A stretch of DNA of 64,000 bases. Source: Okamejei kenojei. Its lineage: Eukaryota. The stretch lies in contig CM069151.1 in the NCBI GenBank assembly GCA_035221665.1, positions 33,852,001 to 33,916,000 on the forward strand, read 5' to 3'. Under the pieces are notes generated by a model that had not been told where the DNA came from, did not search any database, and worked only from the letters and a program-made list of their open reading frames with translations. Of the stretch, positions 6,110-59,821 are shown piece by piece (the stretch's first letter is position 1; each line of letters begins with the position of its first letter). A program made the translations under genes and the position numbers.

Positions 6110-6606
6110 TCAATTTCAATTCAATTCAATTCAAATTTAATGTCATTGCACAGATACAAGTATGGGTACAATGAAATGCAGTTTAGTGTCAGTACGTAGT
6201 GATAGCAATGTTTAGATAAATACAGATAAATAAATACAGATGTGGGAATCTATCGGCGGGACTCCGAGTTCAGCAGTGCGATGGTGTTATTGTAGAAGCT
6301 ACTCCTCATCCTGCTGCTGCGGGACCTGAGGCTCCTGTACCGCCTCCCCGATGGTAGGAGGGCAGACAGTCCATGGTTAGGGTGGGAGGGGTCCTTGATG
6401 ATCTTCCCAGCCCGTCTCAGACACCGTTTTCGGTGGAGGGCATCCAAAGCAGGGAGCGGGGCACCGATGATGTACTGGGCGGTTTTCACCACCCGTTGTA
6501 GTGCCTTCCTGTCTGCTACGGTGCAACTGCTGTACCATACCGTAAAGCAGGTGGTCAGGATGCTTTCGATGGTACAGCGGTAGAAGCTGGTCAGGATCAG
6601 GGGGGA
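6110..6606 (-). mobile_element. Rex1/Babar LINE 3' fragment
   Basis: ORF 6250-6771 FYRCTIESILT...LQRVVKTA...LLPSGRRYRS; (TTGAA)n tail. Confidence 0.85.
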
Positions 6607-6756
6607 NNNNNNNNNNNNNNNNNNNNNNNNNNNNNNNNNNNNNNNNNNNNNNNNNNNNNNNNNNNNNNNNNNNNNNNNNNNNNNNNNNNNNNNNNNNNNN
6701 NNNNNNNNNNNNNNNNNNNNNNNNNNNNNNNNNNNNNNNNNNNNNNNNNNNNNNNN
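6607..6756. other. Assembly gap (150 N)
   Basis: N run. Confidence 1.
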
Positions 6757-17892: not shown

Positions 17893-17910
17893 ATGGGCCA
17901 GCGTCTTAAG
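17893..17910 (+). CDS. Candidate first coding exon (MGQRLK)
   Basis: ggaATGg Kozak context and a perfect AAG|GTAAGT donor; phase 0 fits the next exon. No homology support. Confidence 0.4.
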
Positions 17911-23900: not shown

Positions 23901-26900
23901 TATGAATAGTTGGAGGTCTTAAGAGACGTGAGGGTCTAGGTGTGTAGGAAAGAACAGCAGATGTTGATTTAACTTGAAGATAGACACAAAAGGCTGGATT
24001 AAATCAGCGGGTTAGACAGCATCTCTGGAGAAAGGGAGTACGTGACATTTTGTGTCGAGACCCTTCTTCAGACCTAGGTGCTAGGGTCTAGGTGCTTGGA
24101 TCAGAAAAGATATAGAGGAGAAGCAAAATTATTGAATTGTTGCCTCCAGATGATTTTAAACCAATGGAATATAAAATCTGTCATACAAAATCTGGTTTAA
24201 CTATAGCTGGAGGACTTGAGCTTACTAGATCAGACCACAGAGAGACTACAGTGTAGACTTGGGTTTAGGTTTATTTATTGTCACCTGTTCCGAGGTACAT
24301 TAGAAAGCTTTGTTGTGCATGCTACCCAAACAGATCAGATATACTGTACATAAATACAAACATGATACTCAAGGACAATAGATAGAGCGCCTGACGTGTT
24401 GCGTGATTTTCATCAAGGATATTCAGAAGGATTTTCATCAAATATATTCAGAAGGATAATTCTGAATATATTCAGCGATTTAGTCTTGTTCAAGGGTATA
24501 AACGATGAAGAGTTGACCTGTGAAAAAAGTGAATGAGAGGGGAAAATCTCAATTTTTAAGATAGCCTCACATTCTTGGACAGCGCAGAGATCTTCACAAC
24601 CAACGAATGACTTGTTAAAAGTCAGTCCCTGTTGTTTTGTAACAATGGTAGATAACTGGTGTACAATAAGGTTTCATATAGGAAAGAACTAAATCTAAAC
24701 TCAGCCTGTGCCAAACCTTTGAGAGAACAACAATCCCTCTCCCCAGCTCCTATTACATTGCCCTACAAATGCCCCCTTTTTCAAATACGTATCTATGTTC
24801 CTTTTGAAGTTCTTGTTGAATTGACCATGACCATTTCTGGTAATGCAGTCTAGATTACCACAATTCCTGCCCATATCTCACTCCAGTTACCGAGCTATGT
24901 ACATGTCACACTCACCAAGCCACTGGTTCGGTTATTCCCCTTGAGTCACAAATTTCTATCTCTAACATGCTTCCAGACATGGGTTATACATTCTATTAAT
25001 TCATTTTCTATCTCCTCAGCACTCGATTGACTGCATGAATCCATTCTCACGGGAGCTGAACCAACTAGCAGAGTATCTTAAGGTAAGCTACACCATAATT
25101 TTAAAGATTCACTTTGTGGGGATTTCTGTTCCATTGTTAGATCATGAGGTCTATTTCACGACTAATTGTGTTTGTTAACAAATATCAAGAGCTTTGTTGC
25201 CCCTTGGCATTTGAGCAGGACGATGACTTTTGGTTGATGGTGTGACTGCTTTTGGCCTCTGATTGATGTCCCGCCACAATGAAGCACAAACATGAATCCT
25301 GTTACCACTTCAAACATGACTCCTCTTCCCATCAGGGGACTTGCTGGGACACTGTTGACCAGAGTAGACTTTTCCATGTTTATGATGAGGCAACCACTCC
25401 CACATGTTAGTGTCACCTTCAGCCTGCTATTATTTTGTGTTGATTCACAGCAGAAGGTATTTTTTGATGGGATCTGCAGTTTTTTCCACTGTTTCTTCAG
25501 GCGAGGCAAATGGAGATGGCTTACTATTATACTTGCTGCAGTGTAGTATTAGTATACCAGAAACACGGAATGATTACAGCTTGAAAAGAAACTATGTGCT
25601 CTATGCAAAGGTAATCCAACCTGTCCCACTCTCTTGCCTTCTTCTCTGAACCCAGTAAATTAATTTATTTTCAATATTTATCCATTTCTTATGAATATCC
25701 CAATTCAATCTGTCTCTGCTATTAACCCCTGGTAGTGCATTCCAGACCCTAACCATTCACTGTGTAAGAATATTTTTTCTTGGGTCACCTAAGTTATTCT
25801 AATGACAATTACTATTATTTTACGTCCCCTAATTCTTAACCCCTCTGCCACTATCAGTTTCTGTTTATCTTTATTTCCTTTACCCGTCATTATTTTAAAG
25901 AACACTATCAGCTCTCCTCACAACCTTGTCCGTCCTAAGGAGGACAGGTCTAGGCACTCCAGTCCATTCCACAGGATGTGGATTGTCATCCCTGGAATTA
26001 TTTTGATAATTGTCTTCTGCACCTTCTTCAGATCTGTTCTAAAGTGTAGACAAAATTAATTATTTGTCGTCGAATGAGTATTTTAAGATAGTTCATCATG
26101 ACCTTGTTCTTCTGCTGTGTTTCTGTTTATAAAGTCCAGCATGACATATTCTTTTATTAACCTCTGTCTGAACCAACCCTGCAATTTGTACATAAATACC
26201 CACCAGTTCCTCTGTACTTTCACTCCTTTTAAAATTGTACCTTTCGGCTTACATTGACCTTTTCAATTGTTTTTCTATCAAAATGTAACATTTTATATTT
26301 CTTTGTATTAAATTTCTTCTATCATCTAGTTGCCTATTCCACAACCATGTTTGTATCTCCTTGCTGTCTATTACCCTCCTCTTTACAGTTCACCATGACT
26401 TCAAGTATTGTGCCATATGCCCTGTACATCTACATTCAAATAATTAATTTGTAAAATATTAAGAAAAACAGTGATCTTAGTACAGACCCAGAGGGAACAC
26501 TACTGTACACTTACTTCTCGATCAAAGTGCAATTTTTAATTTTACTCTCTGATTCTTGTTACTTTCTAAAGCACTGCAACAGCCCCTTTTATTACATGTC
26601 CTTTTGATGACAGACCTATTATGTGGTACCTCATTGAATGCCTTTTGGAAGTACACGTATACCACATCAACTGCAATTCCTTGCAGCACTTTTAGTAACT
26701 TCATTAAAAAAATCTCAATCAAGTTAATTAGATATAATTTGCCTTTAACAAAATTCATGCTATTTTCGTTCCTGCGCTGTTTTTTTAACAAGGTTCCAAT
26801 GATCTTCATGTTACAATTCCTGGGCATTAACTCTGAATCCATAGGTCTTTAGAAGATTATGGTCAGTGGCCCTGCAACCTCCTTCCTTAATTCCTTTAAT

Positions 26901-29900
26901 AACTAGAATATTTCCCATCTACATGGGTCCTAAGGCACTCCGTGTGTGCTTCTGAAGTTAACGTAAATCATACACTGCTGAGATTACCATAACAACTTAC
27001 AATGAGCAAGTATTGCTGAAATTACCAATTATACCAGTATGCTATCGCCATACCCTTTGATAGCCAGTGTATGTTGGTAGGGTTACCATTGCCAGCGAGA
27101 GCTTTTGTTCGTTACTATGGTTACTACCCCCTTTGATGCACAACTTGCATTGTTGGCGCTTTTGCATCTTGTGACAGCCAGAATGCATTGCCAGGTATAT
27201 TATACCTAACAACGGTCGATGTGCATTGCTGAAGTTACCATACCCTTTGGGAGTCATTGGTATGGTTACCTTGGGTCCAATGGCAGCCATAATGTGTTGG
27301 AAGTTTCCTATTGGCCCCTGAGCTGGCAAAGTGTTATGGTTATGAAGATTTTTAGGGTGTGTTCCCAAAGGATAAATGGCAGCCAGCATGCTCTGCTGAA
27401 TCTCACAGGTCTTATGACAGCAAATATATCTTGCATGGGTAGCAGGATCCCTATGACAATGAATGAATGAATAGTTTATTTCGGTCATACATTAAAAAGA
27501 ACAAAACTTTACAATCTATGTGAATATGAACCAACACTGTATCCATTTCACACAACGTTCACATAATCAATGACCAAAAAAGGAATAGGCTGAAGCCACA
27601 AAGCTTATTTTTGCCTATTCTATACAATCCATAAAATAATCCAGAATATCAGCATTTCTAAGGAAAGAAAAAAAAACTCTAAATTGTAATCCTTACTTAT
27701 TTTACATTTTAATCATTTTACAGTATAATACTTAATTAGTTTACATTTTAAGGCTTTTTTGAAACTCAACAGAGAGCTACAAAATTTCAACTCATCACTA
27801 AGCCCGTTCCATAATTTGACTCCCAAAACTGAGACACATCTACATTGGTTCTCACTTTACATGTTTCAAAAATACACAACCCTCTTAAATTATAATGTCC
27901 TTCTCTTAATTTAATTTTTTTTTAAATACTAATAGGAAGGCTTTTATTCCTAACTCGGAAAAGTATTTCTAATGTATTTACATGCACAATATCCAAAAAC
28001 GTTAAGGTACCGGACTTTATGAATAATGGATTTGTAGTTTCACGGTAAGAAGCTTTATGTATTATTCTTATAGCTCTTTTCTGGAGTTTAATTATAGGGT
28101 CTATATTTGTTTTATATACATTTCCCCAAACTTCAACACAATATGACATATATGGCATTATAAGCGAGCAATACAATATATACAAACACTTCTTATTCAA
28201 CAGATCCTTTGTTTTGTAAAAAATAGCAATGGATGTAGATAATTTCTATTTGATGTATTCTATATGTGGCTTCCAACAAAGTTTATGATCTATAATCACT
28301 CCCAGGAATTTTGTTTGATATACCCTTTGAATTTCAACTCCATTCAATTTTATTTCACAATTAACCCTGTCACCACCAAACACCATAAATGTTGTTTTAT
28401 TTTAATTTAGGGATAATTTATTAATATCAAACGATTTTTTTTTTTAGCACTATCAATTCTCTTTCTACTGTTTTCAATAGTTCTTTTATATCATTCCCTG
28501 AACAAAATACATTTGTATCACCCGCAAACGTAACAAACTTCAACGTATTGGATACTTTACAAATATCATTTAAATAAAGTATAAATAACTTAGGTCCCAG
28601 TACCGAACCTTGTGGAACACCACAGGTTACTCTTCTAAGCTGTGATTCAGTATTATTAATTTTTACATACTGAAACCTATTACTTAAATAATTTCCCAAC
28701 CAATTTTGTGTGACACGTCTTATACCATAACGTTCCAATTTCTGCAAAAGTAAGGAATGATCAATTGTATCAAATACTTTACATAAATCAATAAATACAC
28801 CCACAATGTGTAGTTTCTTATCTATTGCTGTTGCTATATTTTCTACAAAATCCATCACCGCTAAAGATGTCGATCGATTACTCCTAAACCCATATTGATG
28901 ATCACTCAATAACTCATATTTCTCAATGAAGTCATCAAGTCTATTCACAAATAGCTTTTCAAGTATTTTAGAAAATTGAGGTAGCAAAGACACAGGTCTA
29001 TAATTTGATACCATATGTTTGTGTTGCTTGGGTTTTCATAGGTCTGTGATAATGATTGTGTGTAATAAAGTCATGATGGCCTAATGGCCTTTACCATTTG
29101 TGCAGATAGTAGCACAGGTACATCAATGTCTTCTGTTTTCTGTTGCAGGAGGCTTTGCAGCGCGAGCAGCTCCTGGAACAGAAGTTGGAGACGCTGCAGT
29201 ATTTACTGACCAATACACAGGTCCTCTCTGACAATGTCTGGCAGGTACAAACCTCTTCTTCTCTATAGTGCTGTGCTCTGATCCCCTATAGCTGGTGCAT
29301 CCAGCAAATACTGGCTCTCCATTAACGGTACTCCGCAAACCACTAGAGTGTGCTAGTCCTCCGATCCGGACACACATGGGTATGTACTTCTCTGCACACT
29401 AAACAAAGACAACTATTCAGCGGCTGCACTGGAAACCTGGTGTGAGCCCCAGGCCTCCCTGCTTCCAGGAGGCTGACATGAATGAATTGCTCCTTGGTAT
29501 GGAGAGGCTGTTTGTGAGAGTTGGTCACGGTGGGTCACGGCAGGCAGGGCCACCTCTTGCTGCTCCATGCTCCGGGGCCACCGTTGCTGCCCCATGGCTG
29601 GCATGATGAGCATGGACCATTGCTGTTCCTTGCATTAACCCAGAGTTTACAGTCATTCCCATCACCTCCCATTGGACATGATGGAAGCTGGTGAATCCCC
29701 CTCTCTTTGGTTGGCTATATTGGCCTCACCCAGCTGGAGATTGCTCTAGTGTAACAAGCTGAATGGCCAGCCGTCCTTGGTGCGCTACAATGAATCTTCT
29801 GGTGCTCATGTTCCTGAGAGAAACAGCATCATTCTGATTCATATCCAGCATGTATACTATTATATACTTTAGTTTACAGATGCAGCATGGAAACAAGCCC

Positions 29901-32900
29901 TTTGGCCCACCATGTGTCCATGCCGACTAGCGATCCCCGTACACCAACACTCTCCTACACACACTAGGGACAATTTACTATTTTTACCAAGCCAATTAAT
30001 CTACAAACCAGTGCGTCTTTGGAGTGTGGGAGGAAATCAGAGATCCCGGAGAAAACTCACGCAGGTCACGGGGAGAACATACGAACTCCGTACAGACAGC
30101 AACACTGCCTTTTAGGGTCGGTCAGGATCGAACCCGGGTCTCTGGCACAGTAAGGCAGCAACTCTACCACAGTGCCACCATGTCGCCCATTGTGTCCAGT
30201 AATATATCCCTCACAACACTGCCTTTCCGTTTACCTTGGTGTATCAACACCCACAGACGATCCCGGAGAAGATGCAGCGCTCATACAGTATACTGTAGCC
30301 CAGCACAGGCAGCATCCTTTGATCATGCTCCTATAGAGACAACAGCTTAGACAAAACCAAGTACAGCAATATACATTGACAATAGATAATAGGTGGAGGA
30401 GTAGGCCATCCGGACCTTCGAGCCAGCACCGCCATTCAATGTGATCATGGCTGATTATCCCCAATCAGTACCCCGTTCCTGCCTTGTCCCCATATCCCCT
30501 GACTCCGCTATCTTTAAGAGCCCCATCTGGCTCATAAACCTAACCCCAACTGAGATGGCTGGATGGCCGAAGACAAAGAGTAGCAATAACGGGGGCTTTT
30601 TCTGGTTGGCTGCCAGTTGGCTGCCAGTGACCAGCAGAGTTCCATATAGTGTAGCAAATTTTGGTAGTAGGAATAAAAGTGTAGACTATTTTCTAAATGG
30701 GGAGAGAATCCAGAAATCGGAGGTGCAAAGGGACTTGGGAGTGTTGGTGCTGGATTCCCAAACAGTTAATCTGCAAGTCGAATCGGTAGTAAAGAAGGCA
30801 ACTCAACACTAGCATTTATTTTAAGAGGGCTTGTATACAAAACTAGGGATGTAATGTTGAGGCTCTTTAAGGCATTGGCAAGGCCGCATTTGGAATATTG
30901 TGAGCAATTTTGGGCACCATATCTGAGGAAGGATGTGCTGGTTCTGGAGAGGGTGGAGAGGAGATTTACAAGAATGATCCCAGGAATGAATAGGTTAATC
31001 TATGGTGAGCATTTGTTGGCACTAGGCCTGTACTTGCCAAGTTTAGAAGAATGAGGGGGGACCTCATTGAAACATATGGAATAGTGAGAGGCTTGGATAG
31101 AGTGGATGTGGAGAGGAAGTTTCCACCAGTGGGAGAGTTTAGGACTAGAGGTCATAACCTCAGATTAAAGGACGTTCTTTTAGGAAGGAGATGAGAAGAA
31201 ATTAATTTTGTCAGAGGATGGTGAGTCTGGAATTATTTGCCACAGAAGGCTGTGCAGGCCGTCAGTGGATAATTTAAGGGCAGGGATAGATAGATTCTTG
31301 ATCAGTACAGGTGACAGAGGTTATGGGAAGAAGGCAGGAGAATGGGTTAGGAGGGAGAGGTAGATCAACCATGATATGAATGGTGGAGTAGACTTGTCCA
31401 CAGACAATATCCACAGTCTCTACCTCAGTTGTGACGATGTATGCAAGTAATAGTCTCGCAGAACTGGCAGCCAGACTGTGTTCCACACTGGGCTTTAGAT
31501 GATGTTTTGCTGGGTAGTGCCAGGGTCTTGATGCAGCATCATTGTAGATAACACATATCTCAATAATTAAGTAAAATCATCCATTTCATTGCTGGTTCCA
31601 TCAGTACTCTTGATCCTGCAATTGCACCTGATGCTAGTGAGATGCTCAGTGGGCCACCAGTGTAACTCAAATTCATGTCCAGACCTGTTCATGTTCATGA
31701 GGAAGGGTCTCAACCCGAAACGCCACCCATTCCATCTATCCAGAGATGTTTCCTGTCCCACTGAGTTACTCCAGCATTTTGTGTCTGTCTTCAGTTTAAA
31801 CCAGCATCTGCAGTTCCTTCTTACACATACTGTATTGAAATGTATGTGACTGACAAGCCATTTATTTGACTGTGGTAAATGCATTAAGACAATGCAGACA
31901 ATGTATAACATTGTTTCCGACTGACCCTCTTCCTTTATTAAGGTAGTTCAATTGACAGTATATCTGTATAAAAGCAGAAGCTCTCCACTTCTACAAAATG
32001 TTATATGGACACACTTGCAGTCTCATCCTTAATCCCTTTCTTTCTGTGAGCAATGACCAGATAATCTCTCTTGCAATACTTGGAAGTTTCCTTTTTACGG
32101 ACTTAGTTTAGTATAATTTAGTTTTGTTTGGAGATACAGCATGGAAACAGGCCCTTCAGCCCACCGAGTCCACACCGATCATCAATCACCTATTCACACG
32201 AGTTCAATGTCATTCACTTTTCCACACACTAGGGGCAATTTACAGAGGCCAATTAACTTACAAACCAACGTCATTAGGATGTGGGAGGAGATCGGAGCAC
32301 TTGGAGAAAACTTGCGTGGTCACAGGGAGAACATGCAAACTCCACACAGACAACACCCATGGTCAGGATTGACCCTTGGTCCTGTAAATCCTTTGCCACT
32401 GCATTGCCTTGGGCAATTAAATAAGTGTGTTGTGTGTTCATTGAGGATATATGATGCAGGGGTTGTGAAATCAGTAGGTTTAAAGGGCTGAATGGCCCTT
32501 ACTTTGCTTCATGTTTCAGATCCTATCCAGCTGTCCTGCTGTGGTTGTTACCTGTGAAGCAGGGGAGGGTATTTCTCCTGAGTAGGGTGGCAATGAACTT
32601 ACTAATGGATACCTTCCTCTGCAGGACACTCAGGCTGAGTGTGCAAATCTGACATTGAAGCACAGGGGATCATTCAAATCAGATTTGGATATCAAGACTA
32701 ATCACAAAAACATGGATGTAAAGGTGCAGGAGCTGAACAGTAAAACCGATCTGGAGAAGCTTACGGAGGCAAAGACAGGAAACACAGAAGGAGATAATAA
32801 AGATGGCGAGGAGATTCCAGAAGGAAAAGATCTGGCTTCACCTGACAATGATGTGGAGGATGGGTTGAACAGGAAACGTCGAAGACCAACTCTACGGAAA

Positions 32901-35900
32901 GGTAGGATCTCGGGGTGCGTGGTTTGTGAACTGAGTTTGCGATATCTGGAAACGTGGGTGTAGGGTACGTGAGAACTCGGGGGGTGGGAAAATAAATGCC
33001 TGGGGCTTTGGTGAAAAGGTGATCCTGCGCTGGGAATGGGGTATTTTGGGCTAGAGGATAGGATGTGGGACATTGACTGACCAGGGCCTAGAATTTTGAC
33101 CATGATGTTGTGGATGGAGATGGTGTGTGTGGGGCTGGGTTTGGGTGAGGTTTGTGGAGGTGAAGATTGTGTATGGGAATGGGAGTTGGATGTGGGGTTG
33201 GGGTGTAATGTGCAGGGGTTGTGATGGGGTTTGAAGGCTTTAGGTGTGTAGGGTGGGGATGGGGTATATGGAGGTGGGGATAGGATGTGTGGAGTTTGTG
33301 GGTTGGTTATTTGTCTCTCTTGTACGTAACGTTTTTATTTAAATGTTTGACTGAAATGTCCTTTTAAAATAATTACAAATTTAGCTTCTTGATATTTGTC
33401 TGTTACAGAAAAAAGACTCCAGGAATCGAAGATTCTCCGTAAACAAGCCATGATCAGAGACATGAGCGGTAACTGTACATCCGTATCAGCACAATACTGC
33501 TTTACAATCACTGCGTTACTGCGGTTGTGCATTCAACTCTCCATTCATCCCCTCCTTCGAAGTTGACTCTTTTCCCCTCCTGTAAAACTGCAGATTTTAT
33601 CTCCACCTACCTCCTGAAAAGTGCCGACTTCATCTCCTTTCCCTGAAGATGCTAACCCTTTCACACACCCACCCGTAAGGTGCTCTCTCCCTTCCCTCGG
33701 TGCTGACTCTCTCTCCCGTTCCCTAATGCTGACTCTTTTCCCCCTTCCCATGTGCTCTTTCCCTTCCTTCAAAGTGCTGACTCTCTCTCCCCTCCCTCAT
33801 TGGTGCTGACTCACTCTCCCCTCTATCATTGCTGCTGACTCTCTCTCCTGAAGATGTTGACTCTCTATATTCTTCCTGGAGGCCATTGACTCTTCTGCCC
33901 CCTGCTTCTTCCTCTGAAGGTTCTGACTCGATATTCTTCCTGGAGATTCTAGATCAGTTCTATCCTTGACACAGACCTCCCAACTATCCCGCTTTTGGCG
34001 GGATATTCCCGCTTTTTAGGTTCCCTTCCCGCCATTCTGAATTGTACCCTAATTATCCCGCTAAATTGTTCCTCCCGTGGTGAACGCCGGCGCCATGTGT
34101 CCCCGGTTTGCCAGCCCGCGCGATCAGCGGCACTTTGCCGGGCCCTAGTGGCCGCGCGTGCGCAGTGGGGGAGGGTTGCCGGGCCCCAGTGGCCGCGCGT
34201 GCGCAGTGGGGGAGGGTTGCCGGGCCCCAGTGGCCGCGCGTGCGCAGTGGGGGAGGGTTGCCGGGCCCCAGTGGCCGCGCGTGCGCAGTGGGGGAGGGTT
34301 GCCGGGCCTGGCGCCATTTCGAGCCATGCCACGCCCGGCCCAGAGCCCGGGCGGCGCCGGCCCGCGCGATCAGCGGCACTTTCTTGCCATCACCGGGCCT
34401 CCCCCCCCACCCCCACCCAGTGCGCAGGCGCAGACCCGCCGGCAACCTTGCCAAGTGCGCATGTGCCGCACCCGCCCGCCGGCAGCCCGCTGATCTGCAC
34501 CAGTGCGCAGGCGCATAGCCGCCGGCAACAACCCCAAGTGAGAGAAATGAAGGTGAGTCTAGTGCCAAGTTTATCAAAGTTTAACAAAGAATTATAAATG
34601 TTTCAGCATACATGTACCTTTTTCACATTTTGGCATTTAAAATACTTCTTCACAATTTAGAATTTGTGACATGGGACCCCGAATAGGGCGCCGCGACATA
34701 TTATGAATTTTCATTTAAAAATATGAATTTTGAGGGGAAATATTATGAATTTTGACAATCAAATGTTGGGAGGTCTGCTTGACAGGCTTTCTGTTATTGC
34801 ATTTGGCCAAAATAAAATCTACCTTTGTTTACCTCCTTTACAATGGCAATAATCCATATTTATCTTCAATATGTTTTAGAGAGAGGTCCCCCAGAGGTGA
34901 AGGTGCTGCGACAACAAGCGATTGTCCGAGATATGAGTGGTGAGTTTAGTTACTATGCTCCTGAGTCATGCAATAGAGTGCTCACTGACAATATTCACAC
35001 TCGTGTCCTGTTGGAGATGCGGTCGGGGAGGAAGAGAATTATTCCATTCCTTGCAACAATACATATCTGCAGGACAAGAGCAGCAATATATATCTGCTGT
35101 TAGACACGTACTTGTTCTAACAGCAGATTGGTATTGAATGGGTAGAGTCTAGTGATCTATGAATCATCCTTTATTTGACAGACAGAGGCTGTGTTCATTT
35201 TTGCTTTCTTATAATAAAAAGGCCCAAAGGGTTTTTTTGTCAGCAGAAGGTCAATTATTTTAGGAATGGAAACTCAGAGTTGTTGGGAGTTTCTGCAGAC
35301 ATTCTTAATCTTGGCAATGGGATATAGAATTGCAGGGGAGATTTAATGAAAGTTATCAAATTTATAATATTGATGGACTAGTTCCTCAGATAAACTGTTC
35401 CCCTGGCTGGAAAAAGTTAAGTGCTGAGGGTTCATCAGTCACTCACTGTAAGTGTGAGTCATGAGGTTAGGAGATATGGATTTTCTGTATTCCATCGTTG
35501 CAACATGGAATGATTCATACAGGGAATGTCTGATGGAGAGATCTTTGTATTTTTGAAAGAAAAATTAGGAGACTGTTGCAACTGAGGAAGAGTCAGAAGT
35601 GGAGTGTGAATGGAGCAATGGATTAGATTTAACTTCGTACAGGATCATACAGAGAGAATGGAACAGTGAGATAGTTTATGATTATTGTAGCAACAATCTA
35701 CTGTAATGTAGGTCAAATGGTTTGCTGTATATCAATTCTCAATGCAAAGTATACATACCATGTAATTCTGATGAAAGTTCATGGAACAATATGAAGGAAG
35801 TACTTGCCTATTCCCATTTCCACTATCAGTCCTGGGTTGGCAAAACGCCACTGCTCTTCCTCAGTGTTACACCAGGTGGCGCCATGGCCTGCTCTCGAGA

Positions 35901-47900: not shown

Positions 47901-50900
47901 CGTTAGATAGACACAAAATGCTGGAGTAACTCAGCAGGCAGGCAGCATCTCCAGGGAGAAGGAATGGATGACGTTTTGGTACAAGACCCTTCTTACACAA
48001 TTCTTTCCCCCTTGTTTGCTGTCTGAGAACAAGGAGTTTCAGCTCCAGTGGCTAGAAAAGCATGATGCCACTACCTGAGAGGTATTGGCTGCAATGACCG
48101 AACTCAAATCTCTTTCTTTAACCAAAGCAGCAGACTCAATAACAACACTTATAGATATCTGCTTTGTCCTATTCAGTGCAGCTTCGGTCTGTCCAGGAGG
48201 AGATTGAGAGCTTGGAGGAAGAGAAGGAGAGTGAGCTGACAGAAGCACATGAGGAACTTCACTGCGCACAGGAGGAGATTGTGAATCTCCGTCAGGCAGC
48301 CGAGGAGGCAGCGGGAGAACGGGAAAATGAGATTGCAACGTTGCAGGAGGAGCTATGTCGTATTCGGGCTGAGCTGGAACACCTTCAGCAGACAACAGTG
48401 GAGTATGAGCTGGAGATCACCACACTCCGAGCAGAGATACAGATGAAAAGTGACAGTCGACAGAAGAAAAACTCTGAAGAGGTTACTCAGCTCCAGGGTA
48501 TGATCCAGGCAGTGAAAGATATGTCCTATACAGAGGGGTTTATTAAATGGAGAGGGGATTCCATATAGAACAACATGGTGGGTAGATGTGTATTGCTAAG
48601 TGGTAGATTGAGATTGTTATTGGTGTTCATGTGGTACTAATTACCTAATTTCATGTGGGGTTAGTCACTGGTTTAAAAAAAAGGTCCAAAGTACTTGATG
48701 ATGAGTTCAGATGATAGACTTCATGGGTGGGGATCCTGTTGTTACTTTTCAAGTCATGTGAATGAATGAGAAATGACACTGCCTAGTGAAAGGAGAGATG
48801 TCAGGAGATTTTACTCTTGGACTTTAGCACCAGTTCCAGGAGCAATTGAGCTATAGAAAATAAATTAGAGAACTGAATGAATAGCAAAAATAGACCAGGC
48901 AAGCAAAGCAAGACTAGTGAAATGGGCAAATCAAATTTAACAACATGGAATGTTAAGTTAAGTTGAAGGAGGAAAAGAAAGAAGAATTTAATGGAATTCA
49001 AAGGGGGTTCAGAAACAGTGGGCAGAAAATAAGATTACTACCATAGATATTGTCTATAATAGCCAGATATCTCATATAGATATTGTGGGCCAAATGACCA
49101 ACCTCGAGCTGCATTATTTAATAACTATATATAACTAAAGATGTGAAGGCAAAAAGAGCATGTACAAATACGATGGACTGAACTGAGCAGGCTGTGGCCA
49201 GCTGTTCAAAGGAAATTCAGTGTTCAACTGCTTGCAGGTAAGTAAATCACAGATCTGATGCAGACCCACCGTTAGTAATGGATGAGCTGAGTGACAGAAA
49301 CCAGCAAATGTGTTTCTGTAATCTCACACCAGTCAGACCTAGTGTTGGATCAGAGTCCCCTTTCAATAATTTCATTTATACTCACTTTATATAATTTCAT
49401 TGTTTTAATGCATGTAAAATACTCTAGTTATTTTGCCTTTTGTAATATTTCAAATGATTGAGACATTTAAAAATCTGTGCAAAATTGCATAACATTTGAC
49501 AGATGTTAGAGACAGAGATACATTCCCCACACCCAATCTCCGACCTTGTCTCCTGTCAAGGGCTGTCGGGATATTTGGGGTAGTGTCCCAGCTGTATGCT
49601 AGCTAGCTGCTGACACCTTGCTATGCCTGTCTTACTTCCGATTTGGGAGGCCCAGGGCGAAATAGACCCAACCATCTGTGCCACATTAGTACATATATAG
49701 GGAGAGCATTGAGCAATGGGCATTGAAAGGTCCAACGGAACACACTCAACTGAGACAATTCAGCCAATATATTTTAGGAGGAAAACAAAAAAAAAATGAG
49801 ATTCTGTATCAATATGAGTAACTGAGAGAAAAGCTGGGAATAGACATGGAAATGATGTAGGTGGCACAATGGTAGAGTTGCTACCTTAAAGCGCCAGAGA
49901 CCATGGATTGATTGTGACTATGGATGCTATCTGTATGGAGTTTACACGTTCTCCCAGTGACCGCATGCGTTTTCACCGGATGCTCCGGTTTTCCACCACA
50001 TTCCAAAGACGTGCATGTTTGTAGGTTAATTGGCCACTGTAAATTGTCCCTAGAGTGTAGGATAGAACTAGTGTACAGGTCATCGTTAGTCGGCTGGGAC
50101 TCGGTGAGCCGCAGGGCTGTTTCCACGCTCTATCTATAAACTAAACTGATGCAAAGTCAATATTAATGCAAAACTTAAAACATCTCATTACAGTAATGGC
50201 ATTAACACCTCCAAGTGAAAGGAATCTAGTCTAATTAGAAAGACGAGTAAAGAATAATCAAATTGTTGTGACTAGAAATGTTTAATGATTCTTTCTCACT
50301 GGGCAGAAAGTGAGAGTAAAGAAATAGGAATGAAATTCCTAAATTGCATAAAGGTTTTCTCCCTCCAGCAATGTGTTATTCAGCCCACAAGGACAAAGAC
50401 ATCACTAGAACTAATAAAATTGATTTTGTAGATGAACTAGATTAAGACAGTGACCCCAGCACTTTTAAAATCCAAATGGAAAAGGAAACATATTTGTACA
50501 AAAACTGGAAGAGGATGAGTTTTGGGCAGACATGTGTATAAAGACATGTTGGTGGTTGTGAGGTGGAAAGAGTTACCGATTAACTGGACTGCGGAGCATA
50601 GTTTAAGAAAGTAAACAAGACCAGGTACAGGCCTTGAGGCTTCTCGGTCTCCTCTGTTTTTCTTCATGATTACGCCTGGTCTTTTACCTTAAGTCCACTA
50701 TTAATTCACTCTCATATGCATTTGTTGTTCAAAAATAAAGCTAACTCGGCCAGTAAATAGACGCAACAACTCATGTCCACAGCGCTCTCGAGCAGAGAAT
50801 TCCACACCATTCAAAAGCCTCGGAGGAATAAAAAACATTTTATCTCAGCCCTTTATCCTGAGACAAGGCCCTCTTGTTCTACACTCTTTGGCCTCTCATT

Positions 50901-53900
50901 TTTCTAAATTCCAATCAGTATATACACCTCCTGCTTAATATTTCCTCACAAGCTAATCTCAGAAATCAATCATAGCATTTGTAGGGAAATTTGATTTCTT
51001 CATCTTTCAAATGGATTATTTTTCTCCCTAAACCTTTTTCTGCCATAAATTTGCTAGGAATTCCTGACTGTAGTACAAGGTGGCCCCTATGGCTCCCATA
51101 GAAAAAGGAACACCAGAGGTGGATATGTTCCTCACTAGCTTGTCCAGGTCCTTCTCGTCCTGTAAAAACACTTTCCCACCTCCGTCCATCAATGCAGCAT
51201 CCATCCATTCAGCAGCGGAAGAGTGTTGAGTGGTGCTTCCATCGTCACACCTGCTTGCTACATTTTGACAAATGTGAGAACTTGCAACACATCAAAAAAA
51301 ACAATAAACTCAGTTTCAGCGCGGTTCTACCTGACGATTAAAGTTCTCGGTTTTCATGTGACTTTCACAAACAGCATTAGGGTGACCTGCACCAATGTCA
51401 GAAAAATGCTGAAGATCAATTTCTAAGCCAATTTCTTAGCTACATTGGCGGTAGAAAACAAATAAAAAGATGTAATGGTAAACCATTGTAACGCATACAC
51501 AATTGCACATACAATTGGCTATGGGCATAGTGTTCAATTCTGAAAAAATAAGCGATTTTATGGGGGCATTGAAAAATTACAAATTCTTTAGGGCATAACA
51601 GATAAAAATAGATAGGAGGGTACACAAAAAGCTGGAGAAACTCAGCGGGTGCAGCAGCATCTAAGGAGCGAAGGAGATAGGCGACGTTTCGGGTCACGAC
51701 CCGAAACGTCGCCTATCTCCTTCGCTCCTTAGATGCTGCTGCACCCGCTGAGTTTCTCCAGCTTTTTGTGTACCCTCGATTCTCCAGCATCTGCAGTTCC
51801 TTCTTTAAAAAAATAGATAGGAGGTTGCTTAGAGATTTAAAGTGCTTAGCAGAAGAACCAGGCAACAGGAGGACACTGTTTTGGACAAAGTAAGTTGTAG
51901 TGATTGGGAATGCACAGCCTGAAAACATGATAAAAATAGATTAAATTATTTACTTCAGGAAGAAAATTAATGAAAATAATTATATGCCATTGAGGAAAGT
52001 GAGATTAACTGGGTAGCTCTTTCACAGAGTAGACTGCCATGATGTGCTAAATGCTCTTTATCTGAGCTCTACCACACTATGATTCTGTTAATAAGTATGT
52101 TCCATAAAAAAAAAAGGAAATTACAATTAATTTTGGGATGTTGAGGGAAAAACAATTGGACATAACAAGAATTATCAATTATGTGTGTGGGAATGCAGTT
52201 AAACAGATAAAATAAGGCAACGGGCGAAGACGAGTTGAGAAAAGACATTAAAACAAAACAAAAGGAAAAACATTTTACATATTTTGAACATAAAATTAAT
52301 ATCAAGTGGAATTGCGGAAGGGGAGGATGCTATCAATTAGATTTGAGAAGTGGGGGAGGTGGGAAGGGTTGGTGGGATATTTGTACGTGTTATAAACGTG
52401 TGGTTCTGTGTGGGATGGTTAAATGCCCAAACTTGCCTGGCTAAATGTCTTCTGTCACAACCCCTGCACATTTCAGTGTAAATCCATCACGATAGGAATG
52501 AAGGAAGTGGCTAAAACAATGCCTTTTTTAGCAGGGTTTTTTAGGGTATGGAATTCTCGACCAGAAGTTATTATCTCCCTGCATGTGTGTGTTGCTATTT
52601 AAACTGTGTGTGTAACAGGTGCAGTACAGTGTCTGCAGGTTGAGTGTCGAAATCTGGCTCAAGAATGTCGAGTTCTGCAGAATGATAACAAACAGCTGAG
52701 GGAAAGACTGCAGCAAATGGAACGGCAGTATTGCAGGTAGGACAAATTAACTATGTTATGTATGCTTTGGTACGTAAGGCTTGCACCCTCTCTCTCTCAT
52801 ATACAAATAAACAAACATGTATTCACGTGCATTCACACAACACACACACCTTTATCAATAAAAAACACACACTTATACACAAATTCACCATTATGCTTAT
52901 TCATGCTCTCACACACATGCTTGCTTCCACCCTCACTCACATATTTAGTCACCTTATACATTCACTCTCACACTTAACACTCACACACAACCTCTTGCAC
53001 ACTCGTTGATGCATTTATTAATAACTAAATCTATGATGTGCTTACACTCATGTGCTCCCACATATACTCACTTATTTTCTCTCTCTCTCGCTCGCACACA
53101 CATGTTCACTCCTGCTACTTCAAATTCATGCATGGCCTCTCNNNNNNNNNNNNNNNNNNNNNNNNNNNNNNNNNNNNNNNNNNNNNNNNNNNNNNNNNNN
53201 NNNNNNNNNNNNNNNNNNNNNNNNNNNNNNNNNNNNNNNNNNNNNNNNNNNNNNNNNNNNNNNNNNNNNNNNNNNNNNNNNNNNNNNNNNNNNNNNNNNN
53301 NNNNNNNNNNNNNNNNNNNNNNNNNNNNNNNNNNNNNNNNNNNNNNNNNNNNNNNNNNNNNNNNNNNNNNNNNNNNNNNNNNNNNNNNNNNNNNNNNNNN
53401 NNNNNGCTTGGTCTGGTTCTCTTCAAACAGCTCACCAACTTTCATTCTGCCTGCTCATTATAATAGTTTCAGCCACAACATGATGTGCTGTCAATTGTCC
53501 AGGCACTCAAAGGGGACTCAATTTTATGAGTGTAAACATGATTAAACTAACGGAAATTATCAAAATGAGCTTGCATCCCCCACAAATGAGGTGGATTGCA
53601 GCTCCAAGAAGTGCACTCATTAAACCTTGCGGCAGTAACAGGAGATGTTGGGCTCCATATTTTCCCAGCACCAGAGAACAGGAAGAGAAAACAGGGAATG
53701 AGGTCAACAGGGGTCACTCAATATCTTGTTGCTGTATTGGAAGTGTTGATTTCTGTCTCACGGCCTGAGATTGCTACAATTATTGTTGTTAAATGATTGT
53801 GTTATAATGGGCTGATGGGGTGCCAGTGAAATACAGCAAGCCATTCTCTAATGGGTTGCAGGATTGCTGGTTCGCTGACAGGGATGGTAGCAGTTGCTCC

Positions 53901-56900: not shown

Positions 56901-59821
56901 CTCTGCGCTGCACCTCCCCTTCGAGTGTTCAATGGAACAGTGTGGAGAGAACATTATTCTCCAGCAAAATACAGAACAATGGAATAAGTCAGTGGATCAG
57001 GTGGCGTCTGAAGAGGGTTCCAGACCTGAAACGTTGCCTATCCATTCCCTCCACAAATGCTACCTGACCCGTTGAATTACTCCAGCACTTTGTTTTCCTC
57101 AAGATTCCAGCTTCTGCAGTTCATTGTATCTCAACTTTATTCTCTATCTAGTTTATGTTCTATCCGTCTTGGCTATGTTTCTAATTTCCTGATTGGTGGA
57201 TGTTTGATGGGACAGTGTAGAGGAGCTTTACTCTGTATCCAACGTACTGTACCCTGGCTGTGAGCCTTTGATGGGGCAGTGCCATGGGAGCATTCATGCC
57301 TAATTAACCATTGTGTTGAAGGCTTCAAAGGTTCACAGTTAATTTGGGAAATTGATTACTTTTAAAGGACTTGTTTGATTTTAAAGAGTCAAAGAGAAGC
57401 ACATATTTCCTAGGTAGACAAAAGTGCTGGAGAAACTCAGCGGGTGAGGCAGCATCTATGGAGCGAAGGAAATAGGCAACGTTTCGGCCTGCAAAATTGC
57501 CTGTTTCCTTCGCTCCATAGATGCTGCCTCACCCGCTGAGTTTCTCCAGCACTTTTGTCTACCTTCGATTTTCCAGTATCTGCAGTTCCTTCTTAAGCAC
57601 ATATTTCCTGTTTTCCTTTTAGATCAGGTGACGAATTTAAAGTGGACACTCCAGGGTCTGAAAGCCATTGTCAGCAGCAGGGTGCAAAGGCTGAGATATC
57701 GTCTGAGAACCAATCCAGAAAACTAAATGGCAACAAACTCAAAGAGACAGGACTAAAATGCCAGGAGGAACTGAAGCTCCCTCAGAAGGAGGAGCTGAGG
57801 AAATGCCAGGAGAAGTTGGCTGATAAAGTAGCTGCAAGCGGCCGAGCTTCTGCAAGAGAGCAGCTTGAAGATGGGCGGCAGGTTAGAGGACTTGAGGATG
57901 GAAGCAAGGGTGGTGGTACCACATCTGCCCAGAAGATAAAAAGCCCCGAGCTAGATCCTAGAGCTCTCCAGAGGGCAGAAGAGAAAGGACGGTTTGAAGA
58001 ATTAGATTTAAAACATCGACTGCTAAAGGCAGAAGAGAAAGCACTGACTGTGCAGCATGAGGTAATGGCGACATAGGGCTCAGAAACAACAAGTAGTTAT
58101 CTCCATCTTTAAGTACAGAGCAAAATAGTGGGCTTTGGGAAACTTTTTTTCTTTTAAATAAGTGGAGAGCAGTAGAATTGGATAATTCGTTCTGACTGAC
58201 ACACCCTTATGGAAGCCTTCACACATACTAGACTTTCTGTTACTAGTCCTAGTGAGATCCCCATTGTGAAGATGTGCGGCCCTTGTAAGCTCTTTGCACA
58301 CTCATACACACTTTGTTTTTTCCCCTTAATTCTGTCACTTCCTCTTTTTGGCTTTGCATTTAAAATCTTTTTTTGCTCTCATCCATCTACCAGTCTCAAC
58401 TGAATACTTCACCAAGTTATCATCCAGTCTTTCTTCACTGGTTTTGAACAATTCATTTTCATTCATTCAATTCCCATGCCCCCTGTCATCAAAACCCTTT
58501 GCATTTCTACTATTTCACTCATGGTCACCAGTAAAGCTGACTCCAGTCACTTCTTTGGATCCCTTTTAATTCTATTCCTCCACCTCCTTCCACCGTACCC
58601 CAAGAATTGCAGTTTCTTCCAACTAAACATTGGGACGTATGCTCTATATTGACCACTGTTATTATCTCCAATAATATGCCTCAGGACATCTGGTACAGGA
58701 ATGCTCTTTAATGGCTTTGTCACGTCCTGATCGACCTATTCTAGAGCTCTTCCTTATTTTTGCTTTGATTGCATTTCATCTCATTTAAAACTTGGCTCCA
58801 GAAATGTTAACCCACATCAAGGCTACATAGTCATACTACTGTCTCAACCAAAACATTCTAACCCTGTTTAAATCTCTCCATGGATTCAATTCTTTGTATA
58901 TCCATCTTGTTGCCTACCTTTTTCCATCTTTGATCCTCAGACTCTGTACGTTGTCTTTCCACCTGCGTCCCTTCTGTAATGTTTTCACTTGTAAAGTTTA
59001 TGATTCCTAGAAATCTTTCCTTTCTTTGTCAGCTCACTGCTCCTTTTATCTTGCTCCAGAATGAAGTACAATGGGAATGTTTCTTTGTTAAAGGCTGTCT
59101 GACTGCCTCTTGCTGTTGGCTGCTTTATACAATCCCTGTGAGAGGAGTGGGTCTACATATGTCAAGCACCTGTGTGTGGAACGAGTCTGTGTATTGTATT
59201 TGCATAGAGATGAGAAGTTAGGTCTGTGTGTAAGAGTTAGGTCATTGTGCAGAGCCGGTGAGGGCAATGGGTCTTTCAAAATGAGACCGATGGTCAAATT
59301 GGCTTGAGTGCAAGGTTTGTGGGGTATGTAAATTGTCTGTGTGATGAGGTTCAATTATATCAATACATCTTTGCTGTACTGGTTCTTTTCTTTTTCCTTC
59401 TCACCACATTTGAAAAGCTGTCGTATCCTTTTCAGAGCTGCACTGGCACTGTGCATTTCCACTGTATTGGAGGTATAAACTTAGTCCCAAGACTCAAAGC
59501 CCCAGAGGTTAGGTGGAGAGCCTCAACTCCAGACAGGCCATGTATAGTCTCACCTGTTCAGTGCATTTGTACAAGGATGGGTTTCTCTATTATCTTATGC
59601 AGAATCTAGTGCCTCACACACACCCCTGATACTGTGTCAACAAGTCGTGCTTTGCTAACAAGTGATTCTTTCTGTTGTGTGCCCAGTGCGAAGGATTAAT
59701 CACTGATCTGAGAGCGCTTGAGGAAAGATACAGGAACAGCCAAGAGGAGCGCAGCCAGCTGGAGTTACAGCTCAGGCAATTCAAGGAGGAAGTCCACAAA
59801 CTGAAAGGGGTGCCTTGTCAG
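17893..59821 (+). CDS. ccdc136: Multi-exon gene, CCDC136-like coiled-coil protein of the SLMAP/TRAF3IP3/CCDC136 family (3' end probably outside the window)
   Basis: Exons 17893-17910, 25020-25082, 29149-29244, 32625-32901, 33409-33468, 34880-34939, 39045-39104, 40791-42758, 43789-43863, 48177-48497, 52619-52736, 57623-58061 and 59687-59821 have canonical GT donors and (internal exons) AG acceptors with compatible phases, and join into an open 1230-codon frame. The C-terminal exons resemble CCDC136 as I recall it (LEELRAQ..., LLEDERL..., LRSLREEI...). Orthology versus paralogy is unresolved. Confidence 0.75.
17930..18160 (+). mobile_element. V-SINE (HE1-like), decayed
   Basis: gcgccagagacctggg ... 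gtggagtttgca core. Confidence 0.6.
18581..18594. promoter_or_regulatory. RFX X-box-like palindrome GTTACCATGGTAAT
   Basis: Motif match; ATTGG boxes nearby. Confidence 0.3.
18808..19030 (-). mobile_element. CR1 3' fragment
   Basis: Reverse complement of the CR1 3'UTR; VVNMWNSLPQK. Confidence 0.7.
20420..20950 (-). mobile_element. Penelope-like 3' region (purine-rich on +)
   Basis: Low-complexity pLTR-like sequence next to a family short element at about 20278-20415. Confidence 0.45.
21430..21790 (+). mobile_element. CR1 3' fragment
   Basis: GLDRVDVERIFP...TRGH and CR1 3'UTR. Confidence 0.8.
22172..22262 (+). mobile_element. Penelope-type short element with hammerhead core
   Basis: CTGAAGA-t-gggtgtcaaccc-GAAAC-ATC at 22174-22201, followed by family sequence. 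Confidence 0.7.
23940..24075 (-). mobile_element. Penelope-type short element (hammerhead core mutated)
   Basis: Same family sequence; CTGAAGA is intact but the GAAA box is altered. Confidence 0.7.
25020..25082 (+). CDS. Exon, SLMAP/TRAF3IP3-like (HSIDCMNPFSRELNQLAEYLK)
   Basis: ctcctcag| acceptor, AAG|gtaagc donor, 63 nt, phase 0-0. Resembles SLMAP ...MYSQELFQLSQYLQ. Confidence 0.8.
25650..26900 (-). mobile_element. Old decayed CR1
   Basis: ORF 26522-26842 VDVVYVYFQKAFNEVPH. Confidence 0.6.
27459..29020 (-). mobile_element. 5'-truncated L2/Crack-type LINE (RT domain, C-terminus, 3'UTR)
   Basis: ORFs 28427-29014 (NYRPVSLL, QYGFR, GVPQGSVLGP, FAGDT) and 27922-28200; 3'UTR stem-loop at about 27582-27620; AATAAA plus (ATTC)n tail. 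Confidence 0.85.
29149..29244 (+). CDS. Exon, SLMAP/TRAF3IP3-like coiled coil (EALQREQLLEQKLETLQYLLTNTQVLSDNVWQ)
   Basis: tgttgcag| acceptor, CAG|gtac donor, 96 nt. Strong match to recalled SLMAP EALHREQMLEQKLATLQRLLAITQEASDTSWQ. Confidence 0.9.
29870..30185 (-). mobile_element. V-SINE (HE1-like)
   Basis: Minus strand tRNA-like head ggtggcactgtggtagagttgctgcc ... ggttcgatcc; V core. Confidence 0.8.
30380..31395. mobile_element. Two CR1 fragments (minus 30380-30525; plus 30555-31395)
   Basis: RPHLEYCEQFWAP and QRDLGVLV motifs; CR1 3'UTRs. Confidence 0.8.
31697..31828 (+). mobile_element. Penelope-type short element
   Basis: gaagggtctcaacccgaaac ... ccagcatctgcagttccttc. Confidence 0.7.
32105..32380 (-). 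mobile_element. V-SINE (HE1-like)
   Basis: gagaacatgcaaactccacacaga core. Confidence 0.75.
32625..32901 (+). CDS. Exon, acidic low-complexity segment ending in basic motif RKRRRPTLRK
   Basis: cttcctctgcag| acceptor, AAG|gtagga donor, open frame (ORF 32655-32963), phase 0-1. Internal aaaacATGg at 32712 could be an alternative start. Confidence 0.75.
33409..33468 (+). CDS. 60-nt exon 1 (EKRLQESKILRKQAMIRDMS)
   Basis: tgttacag| ... G|gtaact, phase 1-1; paralogous to the next exon. Confidence 0.8.
33972..34777. mobile_element. Non-autonomous DNA transposon with 7-bp TSD (P-superfamily-like, tentative)
   Basis: TIR cagacctcccaac / gttgggaggtctg; TSD cttgaca at 33965-33971 and 34778-34784. Confidence 0.85.
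34137..34308. repeat. 41-bp GC-rich tandem repeat, 4 copies plus a partial
   Basis: gccgggccccagtggccgcgcgtgcgcagtgggggagggtt starting at 34137, 34178, 34219 and 34260. Confidence 0.9.
34880..34939 (+). CDS. 60-nt exon 2 (ERGPPEVKVLRQQAIVRDMS)
   Basis: gttttag| ... G|gtgagt, phase 1-1; shares LRxQAxxRDMS with the previous exon. Confidence 0.8.
39045..39104 (+). CDS. 60-nt exon 3 (AGSVKSLDASYGGLREDANI)
   Basis: ctactttgcag| ... G|gtgagc, phase 1-1, open frame. Confidence 0.6.
39843..40043. mobile_element. Penelope-type short element, fold-back form
   Basis: Inverted arms meet in the hammerhead region at about 39900-39940. Confidence 0.75.
40045..40218 (-). mobile_element. V-SINE (HE1-like) 5' half
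   Basis: tRNA-like head and V core. Confidence 0.75.
40791..42758 (+). CDS. ccdc136: Giant exon: 55 x 10-aa Ser/Glu/Lys/Pro repeats followed by the start of the CCDC136 coiled coil
   Basis: Lies within the 665-aa ORF; ttttacatag| acceptor, CAAA|gtaagt donor; ends LELDELRLQIKQLRKELEESQEQAARHQRSYLDLQ. Confidence 0.85.
40892..42541 (+). repeat. Coding 30-bp tandem repeat, 55 units (consensus about SEVKSTDPKP)
   Basis: Units counted by hand from CEVKSEAFEI to STVISANLEL with no indels. Confidence 0.9.
43789..43863 (+). CDS. ccdc136: Exon (RLLEEQRLVNVQQTENFAKQIQRLQ)
   Basis: ctgcag| ... AAG|gtgagt, 75 nt; matches recalled CCDC136 [25 protein letters not shown]. Confidence 0.9.
44080..44990 (+). 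mobile_element. CR1 LINE 3' part
   Basis: ORFs 44044-44271 and 44311-44736 (NVDKCEVIHFG, HLEYCVQFWSP). Confidence 0.9.
45380..45900 (+). mobile_element. CR1 LINE 3' fragment
   Basis: HLEY..QFWSP and TRGH remnants; 3'UTR. Confidence 0.75.
45985..47742 (+). mobile_element. Rex1/Babar LINE, frameshifted, with nested CR1 3' end (about 46843-47215, minus)
   Basis: NDYRPVAL, DPLQFAYR, GAPQG, KFADD and later HPGH motifs. Confidence 0.85.
47905..47998 (-). mobile_element. Penelope-type short element (decayed)
   Basis: gatagacacaaaatgctggagtaactcagc ... gacccttctt. Confidence 0.65.
48177..48497 (+). CDS. ccdc136: Exon, core coiled coil (VQLRSVQEEIESLEEEKESEL...EEVTQLQ)
   Basis: Inside ORF 48164-48568; ttcag| acceptor and G|gtatga donor; matches recalled CCDC136 LRSLREEISLLEHEKESEL...IASLRAEMEMKS. 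Confidence 0.92.
49860..50148 (+). mobile_element. V-SINE (HE1-like), full length
   Basis: gtggcacaatggtagagttgct head, V core, (taaac)n tail. Confidence 0.8.
51616..51808. mobile_element. Penelope-type short element, perfect 80-bp inverted repeat
   Basis: Arms 51616-51695 and 51698-51777 are exact reverse complements; direct repeat aaaaatagataggagg at 51604-51619 and 51809-51824. Confidence 0.9.
52619..52736 (+). CDS. ccdc136: Exon, coiled coil (GAVQCLQVECRNLAQECRVLQNDNKQLRERLQQMERQYC)
   Basis: taacag| ... AG|gtagga, phase 1-2, heptad pattern. Confidence 0.8.
53142..53405. other. Assembly gap (264 N)
   Basis: N run. Confidence 1.
54492..55582 (-). mobile_element. CR1 LINE 3' part (RT domain)
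   Basis: ORF 54890-55546 SGVPQGSVLGP, KFADDTKL. Confidence 0.92.
56640..57290. repeat. Degenerate about 60-70-bp minisatellite (tgtttgatgggacagtgtagagggagctttactctg-like), interrupted by a Penelope-type element
   Basis: About 7 diverged units visible. Confidence 0.65.
56985..57128 (+). mobile_element. Penelope-type short element with hammerhead core
   Basis: CTGAAGA-gggttccagacct-GAAAC-GTT at 57008-57035. Confidence 0.7.
57412..57594. mobile_element. Penelope-type fold-back element immediately upstream of a splice acceptor
   Basis: Inverted arms; TSD aagcacatatttcct at 57397-57411 and 57595-57609. Confidence 0.85.
57623..58061 (+). CDS. ccdc136: Exon (SGDEFKVDTPGS...LKHRLLKAEEKALTVQHE)
   Basis: ttccttttag| ... 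GAG|gtaatg, phase 2-0, in the frame of ORF 57642-58076. Confidence 0.82.
59687..59821 (+). CDS. ccdc136: Exon (CEGLITDLRALEERYRNSQEERSQLELQLRQFKEEVHKLKGVPCQ)
   Basis: gcccag| ... CAG|gtaagt, 135 nt, phase 0-0; resembles recalled CCDC136 CQELCCELEELQ...EEQRRLQREL. Confidence 0.87.

Follow-up and report, generated by a model that had tools for sequence, protein, structure and literature searches.

SLMAP-type coiled-coil exons ahead of a CCDC136 core at a locus of Okamejei kenojei

The SLMAP family and the locus set beside it

SLMAP (SLMAP3; PDB 6AKM) is a STRIPAK adaptor which stabilises SIKE1 and whose FHA domain captures phospho-MST1/2 for dephosphorylation (PMC11484480). The coiled coil CC1 of SLMAP and the coiled-coil region of TRAF3IP3 both bind SIKE1, bridging to STRN3-PP2A (PMC6323126). 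TRAF3IP3 (T3JAM) likewise has no FHA; its SIKE1-binding region spans residues 188-513 (PMC6323126, PMC10777921), its N-terminus is unlike that of SLMAP (PMC10777921), and it means that an FHA-less SIKE1 binder is already known. Both TRAF3IP3 and CCDC136 are paralogues of SLMAP (PMC11484480), and CCDC136, TRAF3IP3 and SLMAP form a three-member ohnolog family of whole-genome-duplication origin, occupying columns A, B and D of paralogon 5, adjoining FLNC, FLNA and FLNB, with column C empty in the seven bony species tabulated (PMC8040251). The same source gives the paralogon topology as ((A,B),(C,D)), with CCDC136 in 5A as the sister of TRAF3IP3; PMC3826523 gives the same chromosome set, and human CCDC136 stands in tandem with FLNC at 7q32.1 (PMC5702371). 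A search of PMC11461071 gave nothing bearing on the origin of the family.

The locus considered here lies in a window of 64,000 nucleotides of Okamejei kenojei (GCA_035221665.1, contig CM069151.1, positions 33,852,001 to 33,916,000 of the forward strand), the whole stretch of DNA that was analysed. With the CCDC136 (NAG6) of bony vertebrates it shares the core coiled coil (72-82% identity over 89 columns), the order of the core exons and the lack of an FHA, whilst adding CC1 exons, a duplicated conserved 20-residue motif and a 540-residue tract of decamer repeats; human CCDC136 is not known to have a CC1 segment. With SLMAP it shares CC1 (12 of 13 SIKE1 contacts), the C-terminal core and their order, but there is no FHA and, in the window, there are no exons for the coiled coils that follow CC1, and the core is only 38-47% identical. 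TRAF3IP3 keeps helices after CC1 and is not known to have a CCDC136-like core. Its likeness to the locus is taken from PMC6323126. The nearest sequences are shark models: the whale-shark protein XP_048466491.1, named 'sarcolemmal membrane-associated protein-like', has orthologous exons 1-5, and the cloudy catshark proteins GCB83402.1 and GCB83737.1 have orthologous exons 1-2 and 3-4, respectively. All three are annotated as short or partial stand-alone products, without any tie to CCDC136. Titles and abstract openings on CCDC136, SLMAP, TRAF3IP3 and SIKE1 hold no description of CC1 ahead of a CCDC136 core. We put at roughly 0.6 the probability that the locus is a cartilaginous-fish orthologue of CCDC136 with ancestral CC1 exons, whose long isoform would bind SIKE1/FGFR1OP2 and dock STRIPAK without an FHA.

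The exon chain and its surroundings

Assembled by coordinates from the sequence, and thus not a transcript, the chain comprises 12 exons on the + strand from 25020 to 59821, with AG/GT ends throughout, compatible phases (in order 0, 0, 0 to 1, six phase 1-1 exons, 1 to 2, 2 to 0, and 0) and a stop-free frame. By a rough splice matrix, 10 of the 12 acceptors score within the top 4% of all AG sites in the window and 10 of the 12 donors within the top 5% of all GT sites. The two upstream exons of 63 and 96 nt described in the earlier note are present at their places with AG/GT ends, phase 0-0 and the peptides it gave, and the in-phase splicing into CCDC136-type exons that it proposed holds as a compatible, stop-free frame from 29244 to 32625 and onward.

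A coding exon further upstream is suggested because the catshark model retains five residues ahead of exon 1's internal Met. The candidate for this first coding piece, at 17893..17910 (+ strand, 18 nt), would consist of an ATG in strong context, six codons and a phase-0 donor GTAAGT, which has the second-best score in 1-25000 by the rough matrix; an in-frame stop lies upstream, and with this piece added the chain comes to 1,230 codons. N-myristoylation of the candidate piece was considered and rejected, as the piece fits the consensus poorly. The stretch 16200-17910 has few repeats and several strong donors (16708, 17910), and is a possible promoter or first-exon region.

Exon 1 (25020..25082) encodes the opening of an SLMAP-type CC1, up to SLMAP residue 173, and exon 2 (29149..29244) its main SIKE1-contact helix, corresponding to SLMAP 174-205. 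The former is identical to catshark at 18/21 and to whale shark at 14/16 residues, with its score against shark SLMAP reached by 1 of 300 shuffles; the latter is identical at 30/32 to each of the two sharks. Exon 3 (32625..32901; 53/92 to whale shark, 35/59 to catshark) is a variable charged linker with a conserved basic cluster, KRRRPTLRK, at its end, and shows no significant alignment with SLMAP or lungfish CCDC136. It is followed by a 60-nt phase 1-1 cassette with an invariant motif, exon 4 (33409..33468; 19/19 in whale shark and catshark), and by a tandem copy of this cassette, exon 5 (34880..34939; 39/60 nt to exon 4, 16/19 to whale shark), the last exon common to the chain and the whale-shark RefSeq model. 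Across 32874-34939, the basic cluster and the 20-residue motif of exons 4 and 5 are nearly invariant in the window, whale shark and catshark, and neither matched a family. Exon 6 (39045..39104), a candidate 60-nt phase 1-1 cassette that could be skipped in frame, is the weakest of the chain: it was recognised by its splice sites (acceptor in the top 9.6%, donor in the top 2.8%), and no homologue was found.

The longest exon, exon 7 (40791..42758; 1,968 nt, 655 open codons), opens with about 54 ten-residue repeats rich in S/K/E/V/P/T, a 540-residue tract with self-identity peaks at lags 10, 20 and 30 and with 30-, 60- and 90-nt units at the DNA level, and continues into the first CCDC136-type helix, its last 36 residues matching lungfish CCDC136 (0/300 shuffles). 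A search for relatives of this exon among proteins of 1148-3275 residues gave none, with one weak unrelated match among 7,986 scored. Exon 8 (43789..43863) is a helix of the CCDC136/SLMAP core, identical at 13/24 to lungfish CCDC136 and matching both this protein and shark SLMAP at 0/300 shuffles each. The main CCDC136 core is encoded by exon 9 (48177..48497; 101/105 to whale shark), whose matches carry PF28341, and is continued by the core coiled coil of exon 10 (52619..52736; 31/36 whale shark, 16/33 lungfish), the variable linker and helix of exon 11 (57623..58061; 63/137 to whale shark) and the last coiled coil, exon 12 (59687..59821; 39/45 whale shark, 20/45 lungfish), which closes with a strong donor 4.2 kb ahead of the window end. 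A Pfam scan of nine exon products and four proteins gave no family above the cut-off, and atlas searches matched only generic coiled coils.

No trace of the remaining SLMAP domains emerged from the window's 2,744 stop-free frames, N gaps at 6607-6756 and 53142-53405 excluded: the FHA region gave a best E of 0.56 (SLMAP-protein profile and tblastn), the exon following CC1 a best E of 3.1 and the tail anchor a best E of 0.18 (SLMAP profile), in a scan where short split exons score weakly (exon 1 itself, E 1.1). This bears out the earlier note's report that the FHA exons and the ALIDEDRLL exon are absent from the window; for the FHA, absence applies within the window, and exons upstream of it could exist. 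A mis-joined SLMAP was rejected, there being no FHA and the core not being that of SLMAP. The 150 longest flank frames contain no neighbour gene. At 62730-63470, a 247-codon frame with PF09004 (ALKBH8_N) is probably the tail of a retroelement ORF, and similar stretches occur near 46000-47500 and 6250-6600. Two further stretches, 27463-29018 and 33965-34777, are likely recent insertions, because individual contigs of DNA from related organisms jump over each of them; the second contains a GC-rich 41-nt tandem array.

Origins of CC1 and of the core

Exon 2 alone matches the SLMAP CC1 of PDB 6AKM_B at E 1.2e-6, the sole match up to E 10 among 177,635 sequences, and the SLMAP-type segment that the earlier note had recognised in the upstream exons is thus confirmed. 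In the SIKE1-SLMAP crystal, the contacts comprise seven hydrophobic and six polar SLMAP residues within 168-201, including four essential leucines (PMC6323126). Exons 1 and 2 cover all 13 of these positions. The window retains 12 of them, all four leucines included, with K in place of Q173, and both whale shark and catshark retain 13 of 13. Measured against shark SLMAP, contact positions are kept at 12/13 versus 19/31 for the other positions (one-sided Fisher p 0.039). The minimal SIKE1-binding fragment of SLMAP is 167-226 (PMC6323126), and counterparts of residues 206-226, none of them listed as a contact, are absent from the locus. A CC1 ending at the end of exon 2 is also annotated in shark SLMAP, since the Heptranchias isoform X12, 1 of 46 SLMAP matches, skips the next exon. 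We would expect with good confidence, judging from the sequence, that the exon 1-2 peptide binds the SIKE1 family. The helix is under selection, because CC1 is identical at 40/44 residues to each of the two sharks, against 53/92 for exon 3 (whale shark); a pseudo-exon or a chance match was rejected on this conservation in two sharks.

A protein search with exon 2 returned 47 matches from 89 candidates, 46 of which carry FHA (PF00498) together with PF27557 and PF28341, the latter two seen only as precomputed accessions; the one that carries PF27557 alone is the whale-shark XP_048466491.1. Amongst representative proteins there were 14 matches: ten SLMAP-type CC1 segments, the two catshark pieces, one exon-3 read-through and one unrelated repeat protein.

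The core leads to CCDC136. Searching proteins of 187-2000 residues with exon 9 gave 439 matches from 1,101 candidates, and in the top 120, listed with identities of 64-96%, PF28341 is present throughout and most of the names are CCDC136, from lungfish, amphibians and ray-finned fishes; the single cartilaginous-fish entry amongst them is a whale-shark model at 96%, which covers exons 9-12 only. Compared across 89 columns, the core in the window shares 82% of its residues with lungfish CCDC136, 82% with axolotl, 76% with gar and 72% with zebrafish, versus 46-47% with two shark SLMAPs; for reference, lungfish and gar CCDC136 are 80% identical over these columns, and shark and teleost SLMAP 49-52%. 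A 23-row tree, which took 17 of the 120 listed core matches and five SLMAP rows, with two model N-termini trimmed and two invertebrate rows left out as long-branch artefacts of a first tree, puts the five SLMAPs on one side and the window with all CCDC136 on the other, at 100/100. The core does not group with shark SLMAP, and the tree gives no resolution of the first branchings within the CCDC136 group (0/64). We have little doubt that the locus is a CCDC136 orthologue.

The exon order matches that of shark SLMAP. Exons 1, 2, 8, 9 and 10 are collinear with residues 163-175, 176-207, 588-611, 613-718 and 725-756 of Heptranchias SLMAP X12, each at no more than 1 of 300 shuffles; for exons 3-6 no significant alignment with SLMAP emerged, and the best SLMAP matches of the exon 7 end, the exon 11 end and exon 12 are out of register, as often happens in coiled coils. 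A separate observation is that, in local alignment, the CCDC136 core was matched best by the CC1-CC2 region of an invertebrate-type SLMAP, which may hint at an old internal repeat in SLMAP, or maybe at coiled-coil likeness only.

If the core is that of CCDC136, could the gene as a whole still belong elsewhere in the family? One option raised by the earlier note was a fourth ohnolog lost in mammals. Such a gene would fill the slot left vacant on the FLNA/PLXNA3 chromosomes and would be gone from bony vertebrates. The slot is indeed empty in the seven bony species of the table (PMC8040251), the base of the core tree gives no resolution and no flanking gene lies in the window, but the missing copy is expected to be SLMAP's sister and unlike the window core, because the topology is ((A,B),(C,D)) with C empty. 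The core stands instead at orthologue distance from bony CCDC136 (82%, against 46-47% to SLMAP), and no second cartilaginous-fish CCDC136 appears among the 120 exon-9 matches listed of 439; this option is very improbable. Equally hard to credit is the suggestion that the locus is the cartilaginous-fish TRAF3IP3, a B copy that kept both CC1 and core, with the core CCDC136-like because the two genes are sisters. An FHA-less CC1 with a CCDC136-like core would fit, and the protein searches returned no TRAF3IP3 sequence for comparison, yet the core identity is at orthologue level (82%, versus 80% for lungfish-gar), and the coiled coils after CC1, which TRAF3IP3 keeps, are absent at the locus. A separate annotated TRAF3IP3 presumably exists in sharks.

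The question then is how CC1 came to stand ahead of a CCDC136 core. Since SLMAP and TRAF3IP3 both bind SIKE1 via coiled coils, the A-B ancestor would have had the SIKE1 site, and CC1 ahead of a shark CCDC136 core is a prediction of retention. Might a copy of the SLMAP exons instead have entered the CCDC136 locus along the stem of the cartilaginous fishes? The identity of CC1 to shark SLMAP is high (31/44), and bony CCDC136 preserves no trace of it: CC1 occurs in 0 of the 120 CCDC136-type proteins listed, the best of them scoring 2.9 bits where the whale-shark CC1 model reaches 58.6, by a profile built on three distinct segments only and over annotation models among which no mammal or bird name appears. 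However, CC1 is no closer to shark SLMAP than to invertebrate-type SLMAP (29/44), and the window, whale-shark and catshark segments cluster together (99.9/100) without nesting in shark SLMAP, in a tree whose 44 residues give it little power. Retention also needs no extra event, as TRAF3IP3, the sister of CCDC136, binds SIKE1 too (PMC6323126). We regard such exon shuffling as improbable and consider that the CC1 exons were very probably retained in place. The earlier note's alternative of a CCDC136 retaining ancestral exons thereby gains support, from the orthologue-level core and from a CC1 conserved in three cartilaginous fishes; nor does any listed fish or shark CCDC136 already carry this N-terminus. 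With retention, the newborn CCDC136 copy would have started out with CC1 and shed both the FHA exons and those following CC1, with bony vertebrates losing CC1 later; a single FHA loss in the A-B ancestor would be the simplest account.

Transcript, mechanism and meaning

CC1 and the core are probably read in one mRNA, although annotation offers no such product. A protein joining CC1 to the core without an FHA was found in 0 of the 120 listed core matches, 0 of the 47 exon-2 matches and 0 of the 14 representative matches, and a search of proteins of 1148-3275 residues did not find one either; two protein searches, with length limits of 2,000 and 3,275 residues, contained no full-length proteins of other annotated sharks. 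The 203-aa whale-shark model XP_048466491.1 has the same exon 1-5 joins as the chain, and then departs into a different tail of 24 residues, for which the window offers no clear counterpart (best E 0.099). Exons 9-12 alone make up a second whale-shark model, and the two halves come from two annotation sets. The possibility, raised at the outset, that the upstream exons belong to a separate transcript is therefore borne out in part, by this short model with exons 1-5.

This possibility, in its full form, is that of a divided locus: the ancestral CC1 exons would now give a short soluble product (exons 1-5, about 200-260 residues), a free SIKE1-binding helix, and the CCDC136 core would have a start of its own further downstream, which is the bony-vertebrate arrangement. 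The whale-shark RefSeq model is just such a 203-aa protein, none of the four protein searches returned a joined one, and a short product ending in intron 5 is possible at the locus, because the frame read through past exon 5 closes at 35101-35103 and an AATAAA follows at 35213 (one of seven such hexamers in 5.9 kb). Set against this are exons 5, 7, 8 and 9 with matching phase-1 sites, the good acceptor and 655 open codons of exon 7, an exon order that follows SLMAP, and the lack in the window of any terminal exon resembling the whale-shark tail; moreover, the contigs that carry the catshark pieces are 3-4 kb long, so that split models are expected there. On balance we find a divided locus unlikely, whilst giving it real weight. 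A search of sequencing runs with exon 7 matched nine, with no RNA run among those listed. Contigs of four of these nine runs, compared over 24500-44400 at 85% likeness, showed no exon joins among the 15 joints listed (13,251 more exist), in tables dominated by repeats. One contig, probably DNA, stops matching at 32621 with five letters over, where a join from exon 2 would start; with four shared letters, it is a hint only and was left uncounted.

How would the joined protein work? By analogy with the published structure (PMC6323126), two of its N-terminal helices and a dimer of SIKE1 (or FGFR1OP2) CC1 would form a 2:2 four-helix bundle, and the second coil of SIKE1 binds STRN3, hence PP2A (PMC6323126). 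Between this helix and the core lie about 750 residues, made up of the variable linker, the basic cluster, two 20-residue motifs and about 54 ten-residue repeats. This spacer is most likely disordered and, consisting partly of in-frame-skippable phase-1 cassettes, would separate the CC1 helix from the CCDC136 coiled coil at a distance open to splicing; the basic cluster and the exon-4/5 motif likely provide a second docking or phosphorylation site, as far as sequence can indicate. A tail anchor, as in the relatives, is expected downstream of the window and would fix the coiled coil in a membrane; STRIPAK would thus be brought to the membrane site of CCDC136. Because there is no FHA in the window, the SIKE1 arm would be occupied without a kinase, i.e. 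without delivery of phospho-MST1/2. The net effect could then be competition with SLMAP, stabilisation of SIKE1 or placement of PP2A at another membrane. A bolder version can be imagined, in which a membrane-anchored decoy for STRIPAK survives in sharks and rays: a SIKE1-binding helix on a 750-residue, splice-tunable tether, with the exon-4/5 motif as second docking site, would soak up SIKE1/FGFR1OP2, displace SLMAP and lift PP2A off the Hippo kinases, a release of the brake since lost in bony vertebrates. We regard this as doubtful, and any strong Hippo claim is weakened because SLMAP3-null mice show no YAP change (PMC11484480).

For the family, the locus can be seen as a living intermediate in the division of one SLMAP-like ancestor among three ohnologs: FHA, CC1 and core all remain in SLMAP, SIKE1 binding in TRAF3IP3, and only the core in bony CCDC136. 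It also offers a natural FHA-less CC1 with which to examine possible competition with SLMAP in Hippo control, where its effect on signalling is hypothetical. It suggests, too, that CCDC136, a little-understood gene of cone, brain and sperm, began as a STRIPAK adaptor.
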